A stretch of DNA of 32,000 nt from Fidelibacter multiformis (lineage in GTDB: Bacteria; Fidelibacterota; Fidelibacteria; Fidelibacterales; Fidelibacteraceae). The notes under the pieces are model-generated. The model made no database searches. It saw only the letters and a program-made list of their open reading frames with translations, and had not been told where the DNA came from. The stretch lies in the NCBI RefSeq assembly GCF_041154365.1, contig NZ_AP035449.1; one strand, written 5' to 3'. Position numbers and translations under genes: made by a program. Shown one piece after another: positions 1 to 17,028 of this stretch. The stretch's first letter is position 1. Each line of letters starts with the position of its first letter.

Positions 1-70
1 AGCGAGGTGCGAGGAACGTGAGAACGTGAATTTGCAGGGGCGAACCTTGTGTTCGCCCAAGAGCTATCAT

Positions 71-112
71 CAGTCGACAGTCGTCAGTGGACAGTTGGCA
101 GTAGTTAGTGGA
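71..112 (+). repeat. CAGTNNN heptamer tandem array (5 good units plus 1 degenerate)
   Basis: The units are cagtcga cagtcgt cagtgga cagttgg cagtagt tagtgga. The same heptamer family opens regions B (6849-6897) and C (16024-16086), and occurs inverted at 7527-7561. Confidence 0.9.
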
Positions 113-224
113 TTGATTCGATTGAATAGATTGACTGGATTGCTTGCCCCGTGAAAAGGGACCCGGTTTACCGGGATATTTCACGGGGGATTGATTCGAT
201 TGATTAGATTGGAGAATTGACCTG
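111..224. repeat. GATTG nonamer array, then a nested hairpin, then a second GATTG nonamer array
   Basis: First array: gattgattc gattgaata gattgactg gattgcttg (111-146). Outer stem CCCCGTGAAA (147-156) pairs with TTTCACGGGG (179-188), enclosing an inner hairpin CCCGG-ttta-CCGGG (162-175). Second array: gattgattc gattgatta gattggaga (189-215). A near-identical hairpin occurs at 6991-7032. Confidence 0.9.
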
Positions 225-295
225 GTTGAAACACCGGGAGCAGCGATGCTAACTTCAGACAGGCCGCAGCCTGTCCCTACATCTCGACACACATC

Positions 296-441
296 AGGAG
301 CGCAGCGACGCTAACTTCCAACTTCCACCTTCTAACTTCTTTAATAGAATTGGCGATTAATTTGATTTAGCACAAGGATTATAAGAGAGATGGGATATAT
401 GATTTCGCTTAGGTGACGCCCCCACCCCGGGGGTAAAATAC
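296..441 (+). repeat. Conserved composite module, copy 1 (NAACTTC heptamers, promoter-like TTAATT-17-TATAAG, mini-ORF, C5/G5 hairpin)
   Basis: Manual alignment to 16439-16585 gives 9 differences over about 146 nt. TATAAG is at 380-385 and TTAATT at 357-362, with a 17-nt spacer. The mini-ORF ATG GGA TAT ATG ATT TCG CTT AGG TGA spans 390-416 and is followed by GCCCCCACCCCGGGGGT. Confidence 0.8.
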
Positions 442-589
442 ATTGAATGAGTGGAGAGTGGAGAGTGGAGAGTCGTAGGGGCAGGACGTGTCCTGCCTCT
501 GAGTTGGAGTCTTGAGTTTTGAGTGTATGTTTTTAGAAAATTGCAGATTTTAAGACTTAGATTTTCAGACTTTTATTCATTGGATGATT

Positions 590-735
590 TTGCAATCAAT
601 TACTGCAAAGGCTATAAGTGAAACGAGATATATGATTTCGATTAGGTAGCGCCCCCCACCCCGGGGGTAAAATACACCGAAATGCGACACAATGCAAGAT
701 GATATTGTTATTCGTATATATGTATTATCGAATAA
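590..735 (+). repeat. Conserved composite module, copy 2 (core plus AT-rich tail), with TTGCAA-17-TATAAG promoter-like hexamers
   Basis: TTGCAA is at 590-595, followed by a 17-nt spacer and TATAAG at 613-618. The core gagatatatgatttcgattaggtagcgccccccaccccgggggtaaaatac and the tail accgaaatgcgacacaatgcaagatgatattg align to 16530-16620. The mini-ORF ATG ATT TCG ATT AGG TAG spans 632-649. Confidence 0.75.
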
Positions 736-942
736 AACAACAGATTGAGGCCTTATTTCAATCATCCCGGTCGTTGAGTAGGCCGCCGACTGGCCGGCAT
801 ATCGAGGTGCTAATATTTCGGGCGGACACAGGTCTGCACCCTCTCCCTATCGTGACCTTGTACCCTCATACCTTCCGTGCTCCCAAATTTCCTCTGCGAT
901 ATATAAAAAATAATATCAGCGTCTCCGCCCCCTCCGCAATAT

Positions 943-1024
943 AAAAACACTCTCCGCGTCTCTGCGCCCTCAGCGGGAGGCATCACCCAAAATCCCTCCG
1001 CATCTCCGCGCCCTCTGCGGGAGG
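943..1024 (-). terminator. Tandem GC-rich hairpins with T-runs immediately 3' of the protease gene stop (candidate intrinsic terminators)
   Basis: Minus strand, after the TGA stop at 1028-1026: CCTCCCGCagagggcGCGGAGA (1024-1003) followed by ...GGGATTTTGGG. A second hairpin CCTCCCGC...GCGGAGAG (980-950) is followed by TGTTTTTAT (T5 = 947-943). Stems contain a bulge, and the spacing to the T-run is not ideal. Confidence 0.35.
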
Positions 1025-1025
1025 C

Positions 1026-4000
1026 TCATTTCATATACACAATCTTCCGGATCTGCACCTGCCGGTCAAAACGGGCCCTGACGATATAAAGACCCGTAGA
1101 GAGGTGTGAAGCGGTGTAATCAAAATGGTGTTCGCCGGCGGGATGATTCGAAAAAGCTATCCGGTCTACAATGCGGCCGGTGATATCCACAACTTCAAAC
1201 ACAAGATCCCCCGCATCCGGCAGGCTGTAGGTCAACCGGGTCACCGGATTGAAGGGATTGGGATAGGCGGATCCAAGTATAAAAACTTCGGGAAGGATCT
1301 CCTCTTCCTGTCCGGGAAGGGTCCGTTTCCGGATCACCACTTTCTCCGGATCTTCTCCCCAATCGATTCTGGCAATGCCGGTCAGTTCATCCTCCGGATA
1401 TTTGGTTTTCAGTTCTGTTAAATAATACTCCGCCTGAACACTATCCGCTAAATCCTTATCATAGAGATTGAACAGATCAAAAAGGGCCGTGGTTTCATGG
1501 ATGGTTTCCGGGTTTTCCGCAAGGATTTCACGGGAGAGGGCGATGGCCTGTTTCGTATCTTTCATCCGACGGTATTCGGACACTTTCCGGGATTTGATCA
1601 CGGCCCGGAGGGTCTTATCGTCGACACCGGTCAGGAGTTCATCCAGATACGTCAGCATATCCCGGGGTTTCTGTTCACGGCAGAGGCGTACGGACATGCT
1701 CAAGGCCCGGTAGGCATAAGTGGAGGCGGGATATAAGCGGATCAGGGTCTGAAAATCATCGAGTGCCCCGGTATAGTTCTTTTCCCACACGGCACTCATA
1801 GCGACTTCCCACAGGGCTTTGGCCGCTTCGTCGCCCGGTTTTTCTTCCGGATGGGATGCGATGACCGATTCAGGGCTGCTTTTACTCAGGGTGCTGCCGG
1901 AACCGGGATCGGATTGCAAAGGATATGTGGTGAGTACATCTCCGTAACAGGCAGATGCTGAAGGTTGACCCCACCAGCAACGTCTTGCATCGATGGATGA
2001 TGTGCCATCCGATGCGACGGCGGCATAATAGGTCCCCTGCCAGATAATGGAGTTTTTGCAATTTCCCCACACTTGTGGGATATGTCCACCCATAACAGGC
2101 GTTGAAGCATTGGATGCTAAAATAACACCCTCTGAAGATTCTCCGGATGACATATAATTAAAGCCCGTGTATGTATAATTTTCATACTGTCCAAACAGCG
2201 GATCGCTCCCGTTGTTTGCATACACTGCCCATAAAGCATCCGTGGTGCTGATCGTATTATAATACAGATCCGGTGATGATGAATACATTATAAAAGCATA
2301 ATTCCCGCTTCCGCCGGTAATCAAATTATTGTGCATTTCCGAATTACTGTTCACAAAATATAGACCGAATAACCCGGATTCCGTGATTGCATTTGATTCT
2401 ATTAAGGGGGACCCGTTGTAAACATACAGGCCAAAGGTTGAGGCATTGCTGATTGTATTATCAGAAATTTCCGAACCCGCCGGGACATTCAGACTCATGA
2501 TCCCATATCCGGAATTTGATAGTTCGTTGTTGGAAATAACGACAGACCCATTCGAACCTGAACAATAAATAGCATACGTCTCTATATCGGACAATGTATT
2601 CTCATATATGTATGGGGTCGATCCATTAGAACAGTAAATACCATTTTTACTGTTTGAGATTTCATTAAAGGTTATAACAGGTGTCCCATTCAATCCTGAA
2701 TTAATTGCCCTGCTTGAAATATTTGTCAGATGATTATAAAAAATATACGTTGAAGAATTCAGAGAGCTTATTCCGTAAGATGCATCAGATATGGTATTTG
2801 AACTGAGTACCAGGGCATCCTGGCCTGTTTTCCCTGAATGATCACGAATGGCTGTGGTTGCATGGGTTATAGTGCATCCGCTTAATGAGCCCGAACTGTT
2901 TTCCTGATAATATAGACCGCCCCAGGTTCCGGAAATACTTGTAAACGTTGCATTATTTCCTTCCAGGGTTGCACCCCCTGCTATCTCCAATGTTTTTCCC
3001 GATGGATATTTTAACAGGGCTCCATCCTGAGCCACCAGCTTTCTTCCACTCGTCAGGGTATACGTATCATTAAAAATAAATTCTCCGCGAAGGTAAAGTT
3101 CTGATCCGTTATTAAATGCATCATCAATTGTTGTATACAACCCCAGAACCGTTGACCCGGACATAAGACGGATATCCGGAGTAAAGCTTGCACCGGATTC
3201 GATAGCAAGTGACCCGGATCCTTTTTGAATGGTATGACTGTCTAACGTAATATCTGACCCGTTTCTAAATGTCAGTGTCACCCCCGGGGGAACGGTGAGA
3301 CTCACGGCAAGGGTGTGAGAACCATATACATCGATACTCTGGCCACTGGTGGCGGCTGACATGGCAGATGTGATTGTGGAATATATCCCTTTAATGGCAC
3401 TTCCCGTTATAAGCCGGGTATGGGAATTGGAGGAGTTGATGGTTGCGCCGGATTCGACGGTGATCGTTCCGCCGGTAGAAATTATTGAATACCCATTCAG
3501 AGTAATATTCGTACTATTGGATATAGTTAGAGTAATACCAGAAGGAACAATAATAATTCCTGTGATTGTGTGGGATCCGGACCATATTGCATTTGCTGGC
3601 AACGTGCCTTCCGACAACATGCCATTATCAATACCATCAAGAACTGTAGCACCTGTGTTATCCGGATCAAGCCAATCTCTTAGGCGAGAAGAAGAACTGC
3701 CCCCATAATTCCATGACATAGAAAATTTGCCATACCATTTAGTTCTATATTCACAAAAAGGAACATCTCCTGTTCCTCCTTGATTCTGACCTACAACTCT
3801 ATGGTCCTGATTAATTAATGGTGCTCCAGATGACCCCCTTTCTGTAGTTCCATCATCAAATGTAACTCTCCAATGAGAATTTTCTGGTGTTACGTCCCAA
3901 GAACTGGATATTGCTTGATCGTATTCAAAGGAAATTTTTTTGATATCACCACTTGGATGATGGATAACTACAGAAGATGTCGGTGGAGTATTAATATTAG

Positions 4001-4973
4001 ACCAACCGTTATAATATACATTGTAATCAGAAGGCGGTGTTTCATCAAGTATGAGTAATGCAAAATCTGATGCTATATTACTAGCTTTGAGAGATGCTCC
4101 AACAAGTGTTTGTGCAGTCGGCTCTTCAGGAGGATTGTTACAGGTGTTGCTTTCATAATTAAACCAAATAACCCAGGTGTCAATATCCCCGTCTAAACAG
4201 TGTTCGGCAGTTAAAAAATAGGGAGCATAATTTTCTTTAACATTGTTAAGTAAAGAGCCGGAACAAAGTCTGGTACCATCACCTAGGACAATCAAACCAA
4301 CCGATCGAACTTCATTCTGCCAGTCTTCAGCTTCCGGACAATGGACATTATTATTACAAGCTTCAGAATCACCATAACCGGTAATTTTATAAAAATGACT
4401 CTTATTAGCACCCTTAAAAAAATCACGGTAAGCATGAACAACTCTGGAAATACTAATTTCACCGGTTCGGATAACATTTGCGGGTTCATAATATTCAAGA
4501 ATAATTTCATCACCTCTAACTAATCCGGTAGCAAACTTACCATGCGCTTTATTATTTCGGGATGTAAAAGCACCAATAATCATACTTTTTTCATTATTAT
4601 ATAAAAAATATTTTGATCCTTCTGGCAACCAAAATTTATCATAAATCAAGTTTATTGAATATGCACCACGAGATATTATTTTTAAACGCCATAGTTTACT
4701 TCCATCGGGAAAATTTACCCACGTACCCGAGTTTTGCATATTATATGAAACATCAAATCCATAACCAAAACGATAAGGTTCAAATTCCGGCGCATATTCG
4801 TCCTCAAACAGAAGCATTTCCGTGTCAATTTCCATCATTTCTTTAACCTCGATGGATTCTGAAACTTGTCGGCTAAAAGAGTAAGGCTGTCCCCCTTCAC
4901 TTAATTGTGCATAACTATCTGAGTATGCACATACTAAATAAAATACAACAAACAAAAAAGCTTTCAATTTCAT
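1026..4973 (-). CDS. Exported multidomain S1 (trypsin-fold, lysyl-endopeptidase-like) serine protease with parallel beta-helix repeats, a TPR-like helical region and a T9SS C-terminal sorting domain
   Basis: 1315-aa ORF. Signal peptide MKLKAFLFVVFYLVCAYSDSYAQ. Triad-like motifs LTAEHC (His258), SDFALLIL (Asp303) and ERGSSGAP (Ser382). Residues ~455-960 are G/S/N/T-rich periodic segments (e.g. NNxISxNxxYGI) typical of right-handed beta-helix repeats. Residues ~1040-1200 are helical and TPR-like. The C-terminal ~80 aa (AYPNPFNPVTRLTYSLP...GLYIVRARF) match the T9SS type A CTD pattern. SD AAGGAAA lies 8 nt upstream of the ATG. Confidence 0.85.
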   Translation of the reverse strand: MKLKAFLFVVFYLVCAYSDSYAQLSEGGQPYSFSRQVSESIEVKEMMEIDTEMLLFEDEYAPEFEPYRFGYGFDVSYNMQNSGTWVNFPDGSKLWRLKIISRGAYSINLIYDKFWLPEGSKYFLYNNEKSMIIGAFTSRNNKAHGKFATGLVRGDEIILEYYEPANVIRTGEISISRVVHAYRDFFKGANKSHFYKITGYGDSEACNNNVHCPEAEDWQNEVRSVGLIVLGDGTRLCSGSLLNNVKENYAPYFLTAEHCLDGDIDTWVIWFNYESNTCNNPPEEPTAQTLVGASLKASNIASDFALLILDETPPSDYNVYYNGWSNINTPPTSSVVIHHPSGDIKKISFEYDQAISSSWDVTPENSHWRVTFDDGTTERGSSGAPLINQDHRVVGQNQGGTGDVPFCEYRTKWYGKFSMSWNYGGSSSSRLRDWLDPDNTGATVLDGIDNGMLSEGTLPANAIWSGSHTITGIIIVPSGITLTISNSTNITLNGYSIISTGGTITVESGATINSSNSHTRLITGSAIKGIYSTITSAMSAATSGQSIDVYGSHTLAVSLTVPPGVTLTFRNGSDITLDSHTIQKGSGSLAIESGASFTPDIRLMSGSTVLGLYTTIDDAFNNGSELYLRGEFIFNDTYTLTSGRKLVAQDGALLKYPSGKTLEIAGGATLEGNNATFTSISGTWGGLYYQENSSGSLSGCTITHATTAIRDHSGKTGQDALVLSSNTISDASYGISSLNSSTYIFYNHLTNISSRAINSGLNGTPVITFNEISNSKNGIYCSNGSTPYIYENTLSDIETYAIYCSGSNGSVVISNNELSNSGYGIMSLNVPAGSEISDNTISNASTFGLYVYNGSPLIESNAITESGLFGLYFVNSNSEMHNNLITGGSGNYAFIMYSSSPDLYYNTISTTDALWAVYANNGSDPLFGQYENYTYTGFNYMSSGESSEGVILASNASTPVMGGHIPQVWGNCKNSIIWQGTYYAAVASDGTSSIDARRCWWGQPSASACYGDVLTTYPLQSDPGSGSTLSKSSPESVIASHPEEKPGDEAAKALWEVAMSAVWEKNYTGALDDFQTLIRLYPASTYAYRALSMSVRLCREQKPRDMLTYLDELLTGVDDKTLRAVIKSRKVSEYRRMKDTKQAIALSREILAENPETIHETTALFDLFNLYDKDLADSVQAEYYLTELKTKYPEDELTGIARIDWGEDPEKVVIRKRTLPGQEEEILPEVFILGSAYPNPFNPVTRLTYSLPDAGDLVFEVVDITGRIVDRIAFSNHPAGEHHFDYTASHLSTGLYIVRARFDRQVQIRKIVYMK

Positions 4974-6821: not shown

Positions 6822-6848
6822 GATTATTCAGGTTGAGACTCGCTGTTT

Positions 6849-6897
6849 GCAGTCGGCAGTGGACAGTCGACAGTCGACAGTCGACAGTTGGCAGTGA
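6849..6897 (+). repeat. CAGTNNN-family heptamer array, 7 units
   Basis: The units are gcagtcg gcagtgg acagtcg acagtcg acagtcg acagttg gcagtga. Confidence 0.9.
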
Positions 6898-6948
6898 CGA
6901 GGAGATTGGAGGGATTGATTTGATTGAATAGATTGATTGGATTGCTTG

Positions 6949-7032
6949 CCCCGTGAAATGAGCGCAGCGTATTTCACAGGGGATTGCCTGCCCCGTGAAA
7001 AGGGATCCGGTTTACCGGGATATTTCACGGGG
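6949..7032. repeat. Two adjacent CCCCGTGAAA(T)...(A)TTTCAC(A)GGGG hairpins, the second nested
   Basis: Hairpin a: CCCCGTGAAAT (6949-6959), loop gagcgcagcgt, ATTTCACAGGGG (6971-6982). A copy is at 16189-16222. Hairpin b: CCCCGTGAAA (6991-7000), inner CCGG-ttta-CCGG, TTTCACGGGG (7023-7032). A copy is at 147-188. Confidence 0.9.
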
Positions 7033-7096
7033 GATTCGATTGAATAGATTGATTGGATTGGGGGATTGGATGATTGGCACTTCGCTGAGCTCAGTG

Positions 7097-7420
7097 TTCA
7101 AACGCCTTCGGCGATCAAGAATTCAAGCGGCACTTCGTGCCGTTCAATTGCTTCACTTTGTTCAGCATTCAAGCACTGCTTCGCAGTGTTCAAAAAAGAA
7201 TTCCAGTCACCCATTGAAATCCGCATATCTGGAATTGAACACCGAACGAAGTGAGGTGCTTGAACCCCATGAAATGGGGGTTGAACGCCGTCAGGCGTTG
7301 GAATACCGCACAGCGGTTATTGAACACCGAACATTGTGAGGTGCTTGAACACCACGAAGTGGTGATTGAAAGCCGCGTAGCGGCGTTTAATAAATCAAGC
7401 GGCACTTCGTACCGTTCAAT
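7097..7420. repeat. Array of at least 11 short hairpins (mostly 4-6 bp stems with 3-nt loops) separated by a conserved TTCAA (left arm) or TTGAA (right arm) linker
   Basis: Left arm. CGCC-TTC-GGCG (7103-7113). CGGCAC-TTC-GTGCCG (7128-7142). CACTGC-TTC-GCAGTG (7174-7188). Right arm. CACCgaAC-GAA-GTgaGGTG (7240-7258). CCCCAT-GAA-ATGGGG (7265-7279). AACGCC-gtca-GGCGTT (7284-7299). ACCGC-aca-GCGGT (7305-7317). CACCgaAC-att-GTgaGGTG (7325-7343). CACCAC-GAA-GTGGTG (7350-7364). GCCGC-gta-GCGGC (7372-7384). Then a degenerate copy of the second hairpin at 7400-7414. Linker orientation flips near the GAATTC at 7198-7203. Confidence 0.85.
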
Positions 7421-7473
7421 TGCTTCGCTGCACTCAGCATCTCCGCCCTCTCCATAAAAAATCACTCTCAGCA

Positions 7474-7523
7474 TCTCCGCGCCCACTGCGGGAGGAAAAA
7501 GTCTCCGCGCCCTCTGCGGGAGG
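7474..7523 (-). repeat. Two CTCCGCG...GCGGGAGG hairpin modules (same family as 950-1024), each followed on the minus strand by a T-run
   Basis: tctccgcgcccactgcgggagg (7474-7495) followed by aaaaa. tctccgcgccctctgcgggagg (7502-7523). On the minus strand these read hairpin-CTTTTT and hairpin...GATTTTTTAT, which is terminator-like, yet no minus-strand gene ends here. Confidence 0.6.
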
Positions 7524-7526
7524 ATG

Positions 7527-7561
7527 TCGACTGCCCACTGACGACTGATGACTGACGACTG
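7527..7561 (-). repeat. Inverted CAGTNNN heptamer array, 5 units
   Basis: The plus strand reads tcgactg cccactg acgactg atgactg acgactg. The reverse complement gives CAGTCGT CAGTCAT CAGTCGT CAGTGGG CAGTCGA. Confidence 0.9.
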
Positions 7562-15595: not shown

Positions 15596-15624
15596 TTGAA
15601 CGGAACGGGGAAAATCCCTATACT
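15596..15624 (+). promoter_or_regulatory. Near-consensus sigma70-type promoter for ssrA (TTGAAC-N17-TATACT)
   Basis: TTGAAC is at 15596-15601, followed by a 17-nt spacer and TATACT at 15619-15624. The mature tmRNA 5' end lies 18 nt downstream. Confidence 0.6.
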
Positions 15625-15641: not shown

Positions 15642-15993
15642 GGGGGTGTACAGGTTTCGACGGGATAGACCGGTTTATGCGATAGCGTGCCGAGGTGTTC
15701 AGGATTCCTCGTGAATCAACCTGAAAACAATCGTAATTGCAGACAATTACGCTTACGCTGCTTAAACAACATTAGGTAGCCGTCCGCCCGGGTTTGTTCG
15801 TGGGCCCGGACCGGGCGCCAATAACACGGACTCGTTCCTGGTATTGTCTGGGTACTAAGAACTAAACACTTTCAGACTGGCTGCCGGTGGTTTGTTTTTT
15901 GTCCTCCCGGCAGTAAGACTCAACAAAAAACTGCGCACGGAGAAATCGTGTAAGTCGCTATTTCGGACCCGGGTTCGATTCCCGGCACCTCCA
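15642..15993 (+). ncRNA. ssrA: Transfer-messenger RNA (tmRNA, SsrA)
   Basis: The 5' end reads GGGGGTGTACAGGTTTCGACGGG and the 3' end GGACCCGGGTTCGATTCCCGGCACCTCCA. The acceptor stem GGGGGUG/CACCUCC has a G3:U wobble. The T-arm is GGGTTCGATTCCC. The tag reading frame GCA GAC AAT TAC GCT TAC GCT GCT TAA (15739-15765) encodes ...ADNYAYAA-stop. CCA is not encoded. Confidence 0.95.
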
Positions 15994-16023
15994 CTTGTAA
16001 ATGTTTAGACGTTGTTTTGTTGG

Positions 16024-16438
16024 CAGTCGGCAGTTGACAGTTGTCAGTCATCAGTCGTCAGTCGGCAGTCGGCAGTCGGCAGTGGTGAGGGGATTGGGGA
16101 GATTGATTCGATTGGATAGATAGATTTGATTGAAACACCAGGAGCGACGCTAACTTCCAACTTCCAACTTCCAGATTTTGATTGCCTGCCCCGTGAAATG
16201 AGCGCAGCGTATTTCACAGGTGATTGATTGGATTGGGGGATTGGCACTTCGCTGCACGCAGTGTTATAGGATTCAAGCGGCACTTCGTGCCTTTCAATTG
16301 CTTCGCTGCGCTCAGCATTCAATCGCCTTCGGCGTTCAATGATTCCAGGCGTCGACATTTGAACGCTGCGCAGCAGCGTTTGAAAACCGCGAAGCGGCTA
16401 TTGAACCCATGAGCCCCTGAACCCATGAACCAACTATC
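16024..16438. repeat. Mosaic non-coding repeat region C (same module families as A and B), starting 30 nt after ssrA
   Basis: Order of modules. CAGTNNN x9 (16024-16086). GATTG nonamers x5 (16092-16136). ttgaaacaccaggagcgacgctaa plus NAACTTC x3 (16151-16171). CCCCGTGAAAT hairpin (16189-16222). A GATTG tract. A triloop hairpin array with TTCAA linkers: GGCAC-TTC-GTGCC (16279-16291) and CGCC-TTC-GGCG (16324-16334). The linkers then switch to TTGAA after GTCGAC (16351-16356): AACGCTGC-gca-GCAGCGTT (16362-16380) and CCGC-GAA-GCGG (16387-16397). Confidence 0.9.
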
Positions 16439-16640
16439 AGGAGCAAAGCGACGCTAAATTCCAACTTCCACCTTCTAACTTCTTAAATAGAATTGGCGAT
16501 TCATTTGATTTAGCACCAGGATTATAAGAGAGATGGAATATATGATTTCGCTTAGGTAACGCCCCCCACCCCGGGGGTAAAATACAGCGAAATGCGACTT
16601 AAAGCAAGATAATATTGATAATAATATATATGATGAATAA
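16439..16640 (+). repeat. Conserved composite module, copy 3 (full length: heptamers, TTCATT-17-TATAAG, mini-ORF, C/G hairpin, AT-rich tail)
   Basis: Aligns to 296-441 (9 differences) and to 612-735. TATAAG is at 16523-16528. The mini-ORF ATG GAA TAT ATG ATT TCG CTT AGG TAA spans 16533-16559. The module ends 5 nt from the stop of the convergent response regulator gene. Confidence 0.8.
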
Positions 16641-16644
16641 TTTT

Positions 16645-17028
16645 TTATAATTGTTCCGGGGCTTTACCAAAATAGAATTTGATAATGGGAGTGAGCAGAC
16701 TGACATCGACAGGTTTGCTAAAATATCCCAGCGGATTCAGTTTTTTTGCCTGTTCACTGAAATCCGACTGAGAGTAACCTGTCATAAAAATAACTGGGAT
16801 ATCCTGTTGTTTACGGATCTTTTCCATGGTGTGGATACCATCTATATCATCCTGTAAAGAGATGTCCATGAGTATCAAATCAGGTTTTTCCTCCTGGGAT
16901 TTTTGTATAGCTTTTTTACCACATGCCACACAACCGCAAACATCATACCCTTCCAGTTCCAATTCCAGACTAAGGTTGTAAGCAATAATTGCTTCATCTT
17001 CCACCAGCAAAATTCGAATCTTTTTCAT
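16645..17028 (-). CDS. Stand-alone response regulator receiver domain (CheY-like)
   Basis: 127 aa. ILLVEDE acidic pocket, phospho-acceptor context DLILMDISL, T in IFMTGY and K in YFSKP. No output domain. Confidence 0.9.
   Translation of the reverse strand: MKKIRILLVEDEAIIAYNLSLELELEGYDVCGCVACGKKAIQKSQEEKPDLILMDISLQDDIDGIHTMEKIRKQQDIPVIFMTGYSQSDFSEQAKKLNPLGYFSKPVDVSLLTPIIKFYFGKAPEQL

Follow-up and report, generated by a model that had tools for sequence, protein, structure and literature searches.

A dispersed intergenic module of Marinimicrobia with a conserved minus-strand core resembling a sigma-70-type promoter

This study concerns a short intergenic repeat module that occurs three times in a 32,000-nucleotide (nt) stretch of contig NZ_AP035449.1 (assembly GCF_041154365.1) of Fidelibacter multiformis, hereafter the window, in which the copies are numbered 1 to 3 by position. 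The module belongs to a real repeat family that is restricted to one group of uncultured Marinimicrobia. Judged from the sequences, its selectively maintained core may be a repeat-borne sigma-70-type promoter on the minus strand that would fire leftward, a reading to which we give a probability of about one half. The original prediction had placed the signals on the plus strand, as a TATAAG promoter followed by a near-leaderless mini open reading frame (ORF) or a small RNA (sRNA) ending at a C5/G5 hairpin. The TATAAG, the mini-ORF and its stop triplet are probably by-products of the minus-strand leader sequence.

Repeat family and conserved minus-strand core

The family was collected by scanning 185,579 species-representative genomes, together with metagenome stretches, with the 19-mer CACCCCGGGGGTAAAATAC from the invariant block of the module, which covers the predicted -10 element and the adjacent C/G run. 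All 23 loci found in the representative genomes belonged to metagenome-assembled genomes (MAGs) of Marinimicrobia/Neomarinimicrobiota (eight copies in "46_43", ten in DJKA126 bin 19, four in STD1_216 and one in UBA6817), and a further 21 metagenome stretches matched the 19-mer. Removal of duplicates left 38 distinct matches, one of which (locus L029) was a chance hit. The remaining 37 copies, namely 34 and the three of the window, were without exception located in Marinimicrobia MAGs or related metagenome contigs, which agreed with the earlier proposal of a repeat family. A viral origin was rejected, as the two matches in viral contigs arose by chance in GC-rich sequence.

Read on the minus strand, the module has the order AT-rich box AACAATATTATC, TTGCWT, 17 nt, TATTTT and ACCCCCGGGGTGGGGGG. 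In an alignment of 28 typical copies that is free of indels (A2), the TTG and the last T of the -35 position, the AT-rich box and TATTTT were invariant or nearly so. TTG at the -35 position with TATTTT at exactly 17 nt was present in 28/28 aligned copies and in four diverged ones. The series of AATATTA box, TTGnnn, 17 nt, TATTTT and a CCCCGGGG-rich stretch was the feature that survived divergence, and all five diverged members given here had the 17-nt spacing and the -10 hexamer TATTTT.

L011: spacer identity to the consensus 3/17, -35 TTGACA
L021:4096-4181 (L021b): spacer 4/17, -35 TTGATT
L038: spacer 7/17, -35 TTGCAT
L027: spacer 8/17, -35 TTGACT
L023: spacer 11/17, -35 TTGACA

The AT-rich box was kept at 8-13 of its 13 positions in the diverged copies, and at 8-11 in the five given here. 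A generic promoter scan independently called TTGACA-17-TATTTT on the minus strand of the module in L023 and L011 (10/12 each), and TTGACT-17-TATTTT in L027 (9/12). The -10 lies in the search 19-mer for all copies but L021b, which was recovered by nhmmer without the 19-mer and retained the -35, the 17-nt spacing, the -10 and CCCCGGGG.

Some copies occupy orthologous positions in different species. In the pairs L026/L027, which share the right-hand gene, and L007/L020, which share a left-hand PurM-like gene, the module was kept and the adjacent intergenic DNA was unalignable. Within these orthologous modules the AT-rich box was identical at 12/13 positions, the spacer at 8-11/17 and the leader at 20-21/32. 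A sigma-70-type arrangement, that is, TTGnnn and TAnnnT 16-18 bp apart and conserved above the spacer, was therefore found on the minus strand. The transfer-messenger RNA (tmRNA) gene of the window (TTGAAC-17-TATACT, 15596-15624) and a tRNA-Leu gene in L019 (TTGTCA-17-TAAATT) have similar 17-nt-spaced promoters, so this lineage uses the same promoter style elsewhere.

A perfect TATAAT is present on the minus strand at the left edge of the module (378-383 and 16521-16526), opposite TATAAG, with GAAATC at 17 nt. As a second minus-strand -10 it was rejected for want of a -35 partner, and it might mark a second, activator-dependent start. The Bacteroidetes-type -7 motif TAnnTTTG was absent, and matches to sigma-54 promoters (TGGC..TTGA upstream; TGGCAC..TATGC downstream) were confined to a subset of copies and wrongly spaced.

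From this arrangement we have put forward a model of how the module might work. The AT-rich box would serve as an UP element or activator site upstream of the -35, which is TTGCWT in typical and TTGACA in diverged members, and the start of transcription would fall within the C/G run or directly behind it, so that very GC-rich sequence would separate the -10 from the start. From there the transcript would run leftward through a leader of about 55 nt, CGyyACCUAAnCGAAAUCAUAUAUCCCAUCUCUCUUAUAAU, which is unstructured and moderately conserved and has 11 C to 2 G, and would then enter the left-hand sequence, either other repeat arrays or a gene. Copy 1 is expected to be inactive because it is without the -35 and the AT-rich box. 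The product may be a short independent RNA, the 5' leader of left-hand genes or an antisense/insulator transcript; its role, like promoter firing and the start site, is what we infer from sequence.

The three copies of the window and the plus-strand signals

The features of the copies in the window are given below; coordinates are those of the window. The promoter calls in copies 2 and 3 are based on sequence and on the conservation pattern of the family, and the same architecture was called by the scan in diverged copies.

669..697, minus strand: predicted promoter of copy 2; -35 TTGCAT 697-692, 17-nt spacer 691-675, -10 TATTTT 674-669
16579..16607, minus strand: predicted promoter of copy 3; -35 TTGCTT 16607-16602, 17-nt spacer 16601-16585, -10 TATTTT 16584-16579
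698..710, minus strand: AT-rich box of copy 2, directly upstream of the -35, with GATGATATTGTTA on the plus strand (family consensus GATAATATTGTTA); may be an UP element or activator site
16608..16620, minus strand: AT-rich box of copy 3, GATAATATTGATA, equivalent to that of copy 2
652..668, either strand: C6-A-C4-G5 run of copy 2, CCCCCCACCCCGGGGGT, with a possible hairpin of 5-6 bp; on the minus strand this run is the GC-rich part that separates the -10 from the leader start; equivalents at 419-434 in copy 1 (C5) and 16562-16578 in copy 3
613..651, minus strand: leader region of copy 2, reading GCTACCTAATCGAAATCATATATC...; C-rich, G-poor and unstructured; its plus strand holds TATAAG and the mini-ORF 632-649
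16523..16561, minus strand: leader region of copy 3, with the plus-strand mini-ORF 16533-16559
377..441, plus strand: copy 1, truncated, with the left edge, leader, C/G run and TAAAATAC; without -35 and AATATTA box
613..735, plus strand: copy 2, complete core, by sequence and family-model match
16523..16640, plus strand: copy 3, with the core complete and 5 nt between the end of its tail and the stop codon of the response-regulator gene
420-441, 654-675 and 16564-16585: CCCCACCCCGGGGGTAAAATAC in all three copies
380-385, 613-618 and 16523-16528, plus strand: TATAAG of copies 1, 2 and 3
357-362 (TTAATT), 590-595 (TTGCAA) and 16500-16505 (TTCATT), plus strand: -35-like hexamers exactly 17 nt before TATAAG
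390-416, 632-649 and 16533-16559, plus strand: mini-ORFs of copies 1, 2 and 3
390..416, plus strand: mini-ORF of copy 1 in full, ATG GGA TAT ATG ATT TCG CTT AGG TGA; judged not a gene
1026-4973, minus strand: gene for a secreted beta-helix/trypsin-like protein with a Por tail
16645-17028, minus strand: response-regulator gene

The copies, hexamers, mini-ORFs and C/G block had all been located correctly, as had the spacing of exactly 17 nt between TATAAG and the three -35-like hexamers, the conserved AT-rich tail of two copies (2 and 3), and the position of copies 2 and 3 facing the 3' ends of the real convergent genes 1026-4973 and 16645-17028. CCCCACCCCGGGGGTAAAATAC had three matches in the window against none in 100 shuffles, and TATATGATTTCGMTTAGGT occurred three times, the expected number being 0.02. 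Every one of the three copies contained TATAAG, the mini-ORF, the C/G run and TAAAATAC. The module had been described as conserved over about 150 nt in three copies; the repeats are genuine, but the stretch common to all three is only about 65 nt, from TATAAG to TAAAATAC. The left 146 nt of copy 3 were matched by copy 1 at 91% identity, and the right 110 nt by copy 2 at 85%. A different repeat cuts copy 1 short directly after TAAAATACA, with a GAGTGGA-array/hairpin repeat present from about 445, and the nhmmer match of copy 1 covers only positions 5-81 of the model.

The details of the mini-ORF were less well founded. Its frame was present in all three copies, but the first ATG is replaced by ACG in copy 2, and the stop triplets, given as TGA, TAA and TAG, are TGA, TAG and TAA in copy order. 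The stop was also said to be kept despite substitutions. The triplet in the 28 aligned copies was TAG in 11, TGA in eight, TAA in seven and TAT in two (L027 and L028), and it was TGC in L038. The second ATG was found in 24/28 aligned copies, being lost in L007, L013, L020/L040 and L044, and the first in 16/28; L007 and L044 had no usable ATG whatever. The ORF has 5-8 codons (MGYMISLR), reaching 12 codons (MISARYRPPTPG) in L027 after loss of the stop. The leader containing it was 63-66% identical between orthologous copies, which is among the lowest values in the module, and the deepest members (L011, L023 and L021b) kept the core with the ORF region wholly absent. ORFs within the repeats had no family match. 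The commonest changes, AGG to AGA and any base at NTT, were compatible with coding, in very few independent events. We concluded that the tiny ORF, whether as a gene or as a leader peptide, is not conserved as such.

The plus-strand promoter fared no better. The sixth base is the most constrained position but one of a -10, and a G is wrong there. The sixth base of TATAAG was G in 28/28 aligned copies, and none of the variants found among the copies (TATTAG, TATATG, TATAGG, TATACG and AATAAG) ended in T. The -35 position was not conserved: the sequence 17 nt upstream was a T-run in many copies; in L005, L018 and L034 it was a GAGCCC tandem array, which is unrelated. Another candidate plus-strand promoter, GTGACG-16-TAAAAT, fitted the TGA copies only and was not kept in L011 and L023.

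A structured sRNA was likewise not supported by the family. Two mutually exclusive stems had been proposed; the C/G hairpin is present in the copies, but the GGTG/CACC stem is possible only in those bearing TGA. RNAalifold on 29 copies returned the C5/G5 hairpin alone on either strand. A model with three explicit helices on the plus strand (ATTTCGN/N'CGAAAT, GUR/UAC and the C/G hairpin), tested on alignment A2, paired in 89.3% of cells compared with 89.2% in shuffles, and its covariation score of 0.088 was at shuffle level (mean 0.086; 196/500 shuffles at least as high). The outer helix (ATTTCG/CGAAAT) and the variable-N pairing were possible in about half of the copies and lost in diverged ones. 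Folding of the plus strand was slightly better than that of shuffles (z -1.5 to -2.0), and that of the minus-strand leader worse (z +0.9 and +1.6). Since L021b keeps the promoter and CCCCGGGG although its hairpin cannot form, the hairpin itself is probably not the conserved feature. In the Rfam scan of the window, only the tmRNA at 15642-15996 reached the gathering score, and the permissive scan (E up to 10) gave chance-level matches only, elsewhere in the regions; the module had no match at either threshold.

Sense codons at the stop position together with a lack of compensatory changes in the stems had been named beforehand as speaking against the plus-strand proposal, and both were found. 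The stop found in 26/28 aligned copies, with TGG never seen, the coding-compatible substitutions (NTT always gives a hydrophobic residue, as in M-I-S-[LIFV]-R) and the slightly better folding are in its favour, but they are set against the lost start codons, the TAT and TGC triplets, the unsuitable TATAAG without a conserved -35, the absence of covariation and of a terminator U-tract, and an ORF region that is poorly conserved or missing; the plus-strand proposal is very improbable. A leader or attenuator was rejected too: start and stop are unconserved, TAAAATAC follows the hairpin in place of a U-tract, the alternative stem that a terminator/antiterminator pair would need is confined to TGA copies, and the gene downstream on the plus strand is convergent in 19/26 copies, not co-oriented. 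The more general proposal of an RNA generator carried by the repeat is plausible.

Genomic setting, rival explanations and known systems

The flanking genes are unrelated housekeeping genes, with HtrA, phosphoglucomutase, LipA and a PurM-like protein among them. In 19/26 copies the right-hand gene lies on the minus strand, co-oriented with the predicted promoter, and ends just before the module, which starts 5-20 nt from its stop codon in several loci; the nominal binomial p for this bias is about 0.03, the copies being not all independent. The left-hand gene was convergent in 10/17 and co-oriented in 7/17 copies, and co-oriented downstream genes, where present, were mostly 190-500 nt distant. 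In L023 and L021b, a co-oriented minus-strand gene follows the predicted promoter at a distance of 73 and about 155 nt, respectively. By sequence appearance, the former may encode a TsaA/YaeB-like protein of 219 amino acids, and the latter may be a fragment resembling an NRAMP-type transporter. A tie to tRNA or tmRNA genes was rejected, as only two loci have a tRNA, at about 0.9 and 4.6 kb.

Eleven of the 34 copies outside the window are no more than 125 nt away from the end of a locus or contig, and two more contigs with the response-regulator gene of the window stop inside the module, so the module breaks metagenome assemblies. A 412-nt composite (window 613-1024 and L017:5668-6079), in which the module is combined with a GGCCGCCGACTGGCCGGC hairpin, a TATCGAGGTGC box and CTCCGCG...CGGGAGG hairpins, was 96% identical between loci with different neighbouring genes, and at both a minus-strand gene has its stop codon 1-18 nt from the end of the composite. 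L048:3385-3720 was identical to window 16500-16644 in the response-regulator gene and the module up to ...TTATAATCC; past the left edge of the module it has another repeat mosaic and another neighbouring gene, which may be due either to a chimeric assembly or to recombination at the repeat that rearranged the locus. In STD1_216, the L016 copy (L016:2016-3117) is flanked on either side by the same sequence of about 430 nt, and the L022 copy has an IS30-like transposase fragment at a distance of 100 nt. A link to insertion sequence (IS) elements was rejected, because only the STD1_216 copies are near such a fragment, within a larger duplicated block, and copies elsewhere are not.

Several findings weigh against a minus-strand promoter. 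The -35 of typical copies (TTGCTT or TTGCAT) matches the consensus at only 3/6 positions, which is below the threshold of the generic scan. No canonical terminator was found within 500 nt downstream on the minus strand: a hairpin with a U-tract was absent in 32/37 copies, and the five terminator-like hits were other repeat hairpins or, in L018, the module's own hairpin. Where the left-hand gene is convergent, the predicted promoter would fire head-on into its 3' end, and the orientation bias of the right-hand genes is not predicted by a promoter role alone. The latter would agree with a 3'-end element of the co-oriented upstream minus-strand gene, in which the GC hairpin and C-rich tract would act as messenger RNA (mRNA) stabiliser or as a Rho-dependent (rut-like) terminator; the short distance to the stop codon and a leader of 11 C to 2 G that is less structured than shuffles agree with it. 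This explanation accounts neither for the conserved -35 TTG and AT-rich box, which would be upstream of the hairpin in the mRNA, nor for the free spacer; 7/26 copies are without a co-oriented upstream gene and no U-tract is present, and we regard it as highly unlikely. As the 19-mer that retrieved every copy except one covers the -10 and the C/G run, their invariance is circular. The conservation of the AT-rich box and the TTG could also reflect the site of a DNA-binding protein. Such a site, an operator for the CCCCGGGG and/or TAATATTA palindrome or a nucleoid-organising site with no transcript of its own, would agree with the two short palindromes being the most invariant blocks, with CCCCGGGG being kept in the hairpin-incapable L021b and with the unsupported RNA structure. 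It leaves unexplained both why TTG and TATTTT are a fixed 17 bp apart and why the -35 of diverged copies has moved toward TTGACA; the analysis yielded no candidate for the binding protein, and the invariance of CCCCGGGG is itself partly circular, being within the search 19-mer. A binding site without a promoter is improbable.

A further alternative is a selfish or neutral dispersed repeat, like a miniature inverted-repeat transposable element (MITE), a repetitive extragenic palindromic (REP) sequence or a bacterial interspersed mosaic element (BIME), spread by transposition, recombination or gene conversion, with blocks conserved for mobility or merely young and an incidental likeness to a promoter. 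The multi-copy, assembly-breaking nature of the module, the composite shared with L017 beside different genes, the switch of mosaic and neighbouring gene in L048 exactly at the left edge of the module, and its embedding among other repeat families would all be expected of such a repeat. No transposase is consistently nearby, though, the flanks being unrelated housekeeping genes, and consistent terminal inverted repeats are lacking: no terminal inverted pair was common to the eight copies examined, which have only an internal AT-rich repeat of about 10 nt (ATATATGATT / AATCATATAT), and a MITE was rejected on this ground. No empty orthologous site was recovered, and neighbouring repeats blur the edges of the element. 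Mobility alone does not predict orthologous persistence across species in which -35, -10 and AT-rich box are kept and the spacer is free. A purely selfish or neutral repeat is unlikely.

In its predicted way of working, the module is most like the promoter-bearing intergenic repeats or putative mobile promoters, which have been surveyed with Neisseria Correia, ERIC and REPIN elements as examples (Nijveen, Matus-Garcia and van Passel, 2012, PMC3575422; Siddique et al., 2011, as cited in PMC3575422). Like Correia, ERIC and REPIN elements, the module is a short non-coding multi-copy repeat beside unrelated genes, has -35/-10-like elements, occurs across related species and has no Rfam match. It differs from them in having no sequence similarity to them and no terminal inverted repeats or target duplications that could be found. 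Its promoter is predicted only, and most copies are downstream of genes or facing convergent genes, not 50-150 nt before a start codon. A REP/REPIN unit is short and palindromic, is often found as an inverted pair and goes with a RAYT transposase gene in the genome; copies of the module are single and do not form inverted pairs. A putative mobile promoter has been defined by at least 80% identity over at least 50 nt at -150 to -50 from the start codons of non-paralogous genes (Matus-Garcia et al., PMC3575422). The module shows this identity and its flanking genes are unrelated; the co-oriented downstream genes are mostly at the greater distances given above, and about half of the copies face convergent genes.

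Escherichia coli rrnB P1 combines an UP element, a -35, a -10 and a GC-rich discriminator with a 16-bp spacer. The module shares with it an AT-rich block directly before the -35, canonical hexamers and a very GC-rich stretch from -10 to start, which is a resemblance only; its spacer is 17 bp, its AT block is a specific conserved sequence with the TAATATTA palindrome and not A/T tracts, and it precedes no rRNA or tRNA gene in the loci examined. The Sib/Ibs and Ldr/Rdl loci of enterobacteria are repeated type I toxin-antitoxin/sRNA loci with toxins of at least 18 hydrophobic residues. They are likewise multi-copy intergenic units in which one strand has a small ORF and an overlapping transcript may come from the other, whereas the module ORF of 5-8 codons is not hydrophobic, and neither ORF nor RNA structure is conserved. 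A type I toxin-antitoxin system, which needs a hydrophobic toxin ORF of about 18-60 amino acids with an overlapping antisense RNA, was rejected, as the ORF (MGYMISLR) reaches 12 codons at most. An inverton was rejected, since the flanking inverted repeats are too short and variable and the orthologues share one orientation, and no matching anatomy was found for a dif/Xer site, an initiation-of-mutagenic-homing site of a diversity-generating retroelement (DGR IMH), attC or a retron.

Surrounding mosaic and meaning of the module

Mosaics of tandem arrays with a period of 7-8 nt (CAGTCGN, GATTGNN, AACTTCC, GAACCC/TGAGCCC and GAGTGGA) occupy window 1-1025, 6830-7560 and 16000-16440, where the arrays flank the long hairpins CCCCGTGAAA...TTTCACGGGG and GGGGCAGGACGTGTCCTGCC. 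The order of modules was identical in window 65-441 and 16018-16585. In 7080-7440 and 16258-16420, 6-10 short GC hairpins stand in runs, parted by TTGAAC or TTCAAT, and the orientation flips midway; the tmRNA promoter has TTGAAC as its -35 as well. The tmRNA gene itself (15642-15996) has the tag peptide ADNYAYAA, and the predicted promoter of copy 3 aims at its 3' end from about 575 nt. Compared with L047, the same locus from another sample, window 16018-16085 was nearly identical except for the CAGTCGN array, which is 42 nt (six units) shorter in L047; therefore the length of the heptamer array is polymorphic between strains.

The arrays resemble the short tandemly repeated repetitive (STRR) heptamer arrays of cyanobacteria, which, like the REP/BIME mosaic elements, are a known form of intergenic repeat. 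Here too, intergenic regions are an ordered mosaic of short repeats, hairpins and tandem heptamers, with the module as one part of it; the sequences and the phylum are different, and the module is much longer than REP and follows a promoter-like rather than a palindromic logic. STRR arrays are mentioned in PMC5088731. A literature search for intergenic repeats of Marinimicrobia gave nothing relevant, and the heptamer/hairpin mosaics appear to be undescribed for this phylum. This surrounding mosaic is the more unusual thing in the window than the module.

A far-reaching idea, which we consider speculative and doubtful, is that each module may provide the promoter and the 5' end for a non-coding transcript of several hundred nt that runs through the left-hand heptamer arrays and hairpins. 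The mosaics of Marinimicrobia would then not be junk repeats but a family of at least ten long intergenic RNAs specific to the lineage, or else terminator-promoter insulator cassettes.

The module is one family within a mosaic of intergenic repeats typical of a Marinimicrobia clade. The mini-ORF provides a warning that tiny "conserved" ORFs within repeats can be by-products of signals on the opposite strand. If the minus-strand promoter is true, a genome would have ten or more portable promoter cassettes that stay in place across species and that could rewire transcription between genes, or insulate it, as well as lead to genome rearrangements. The module family thus offers a testable handle on promoter structure in a phylum without genetics.

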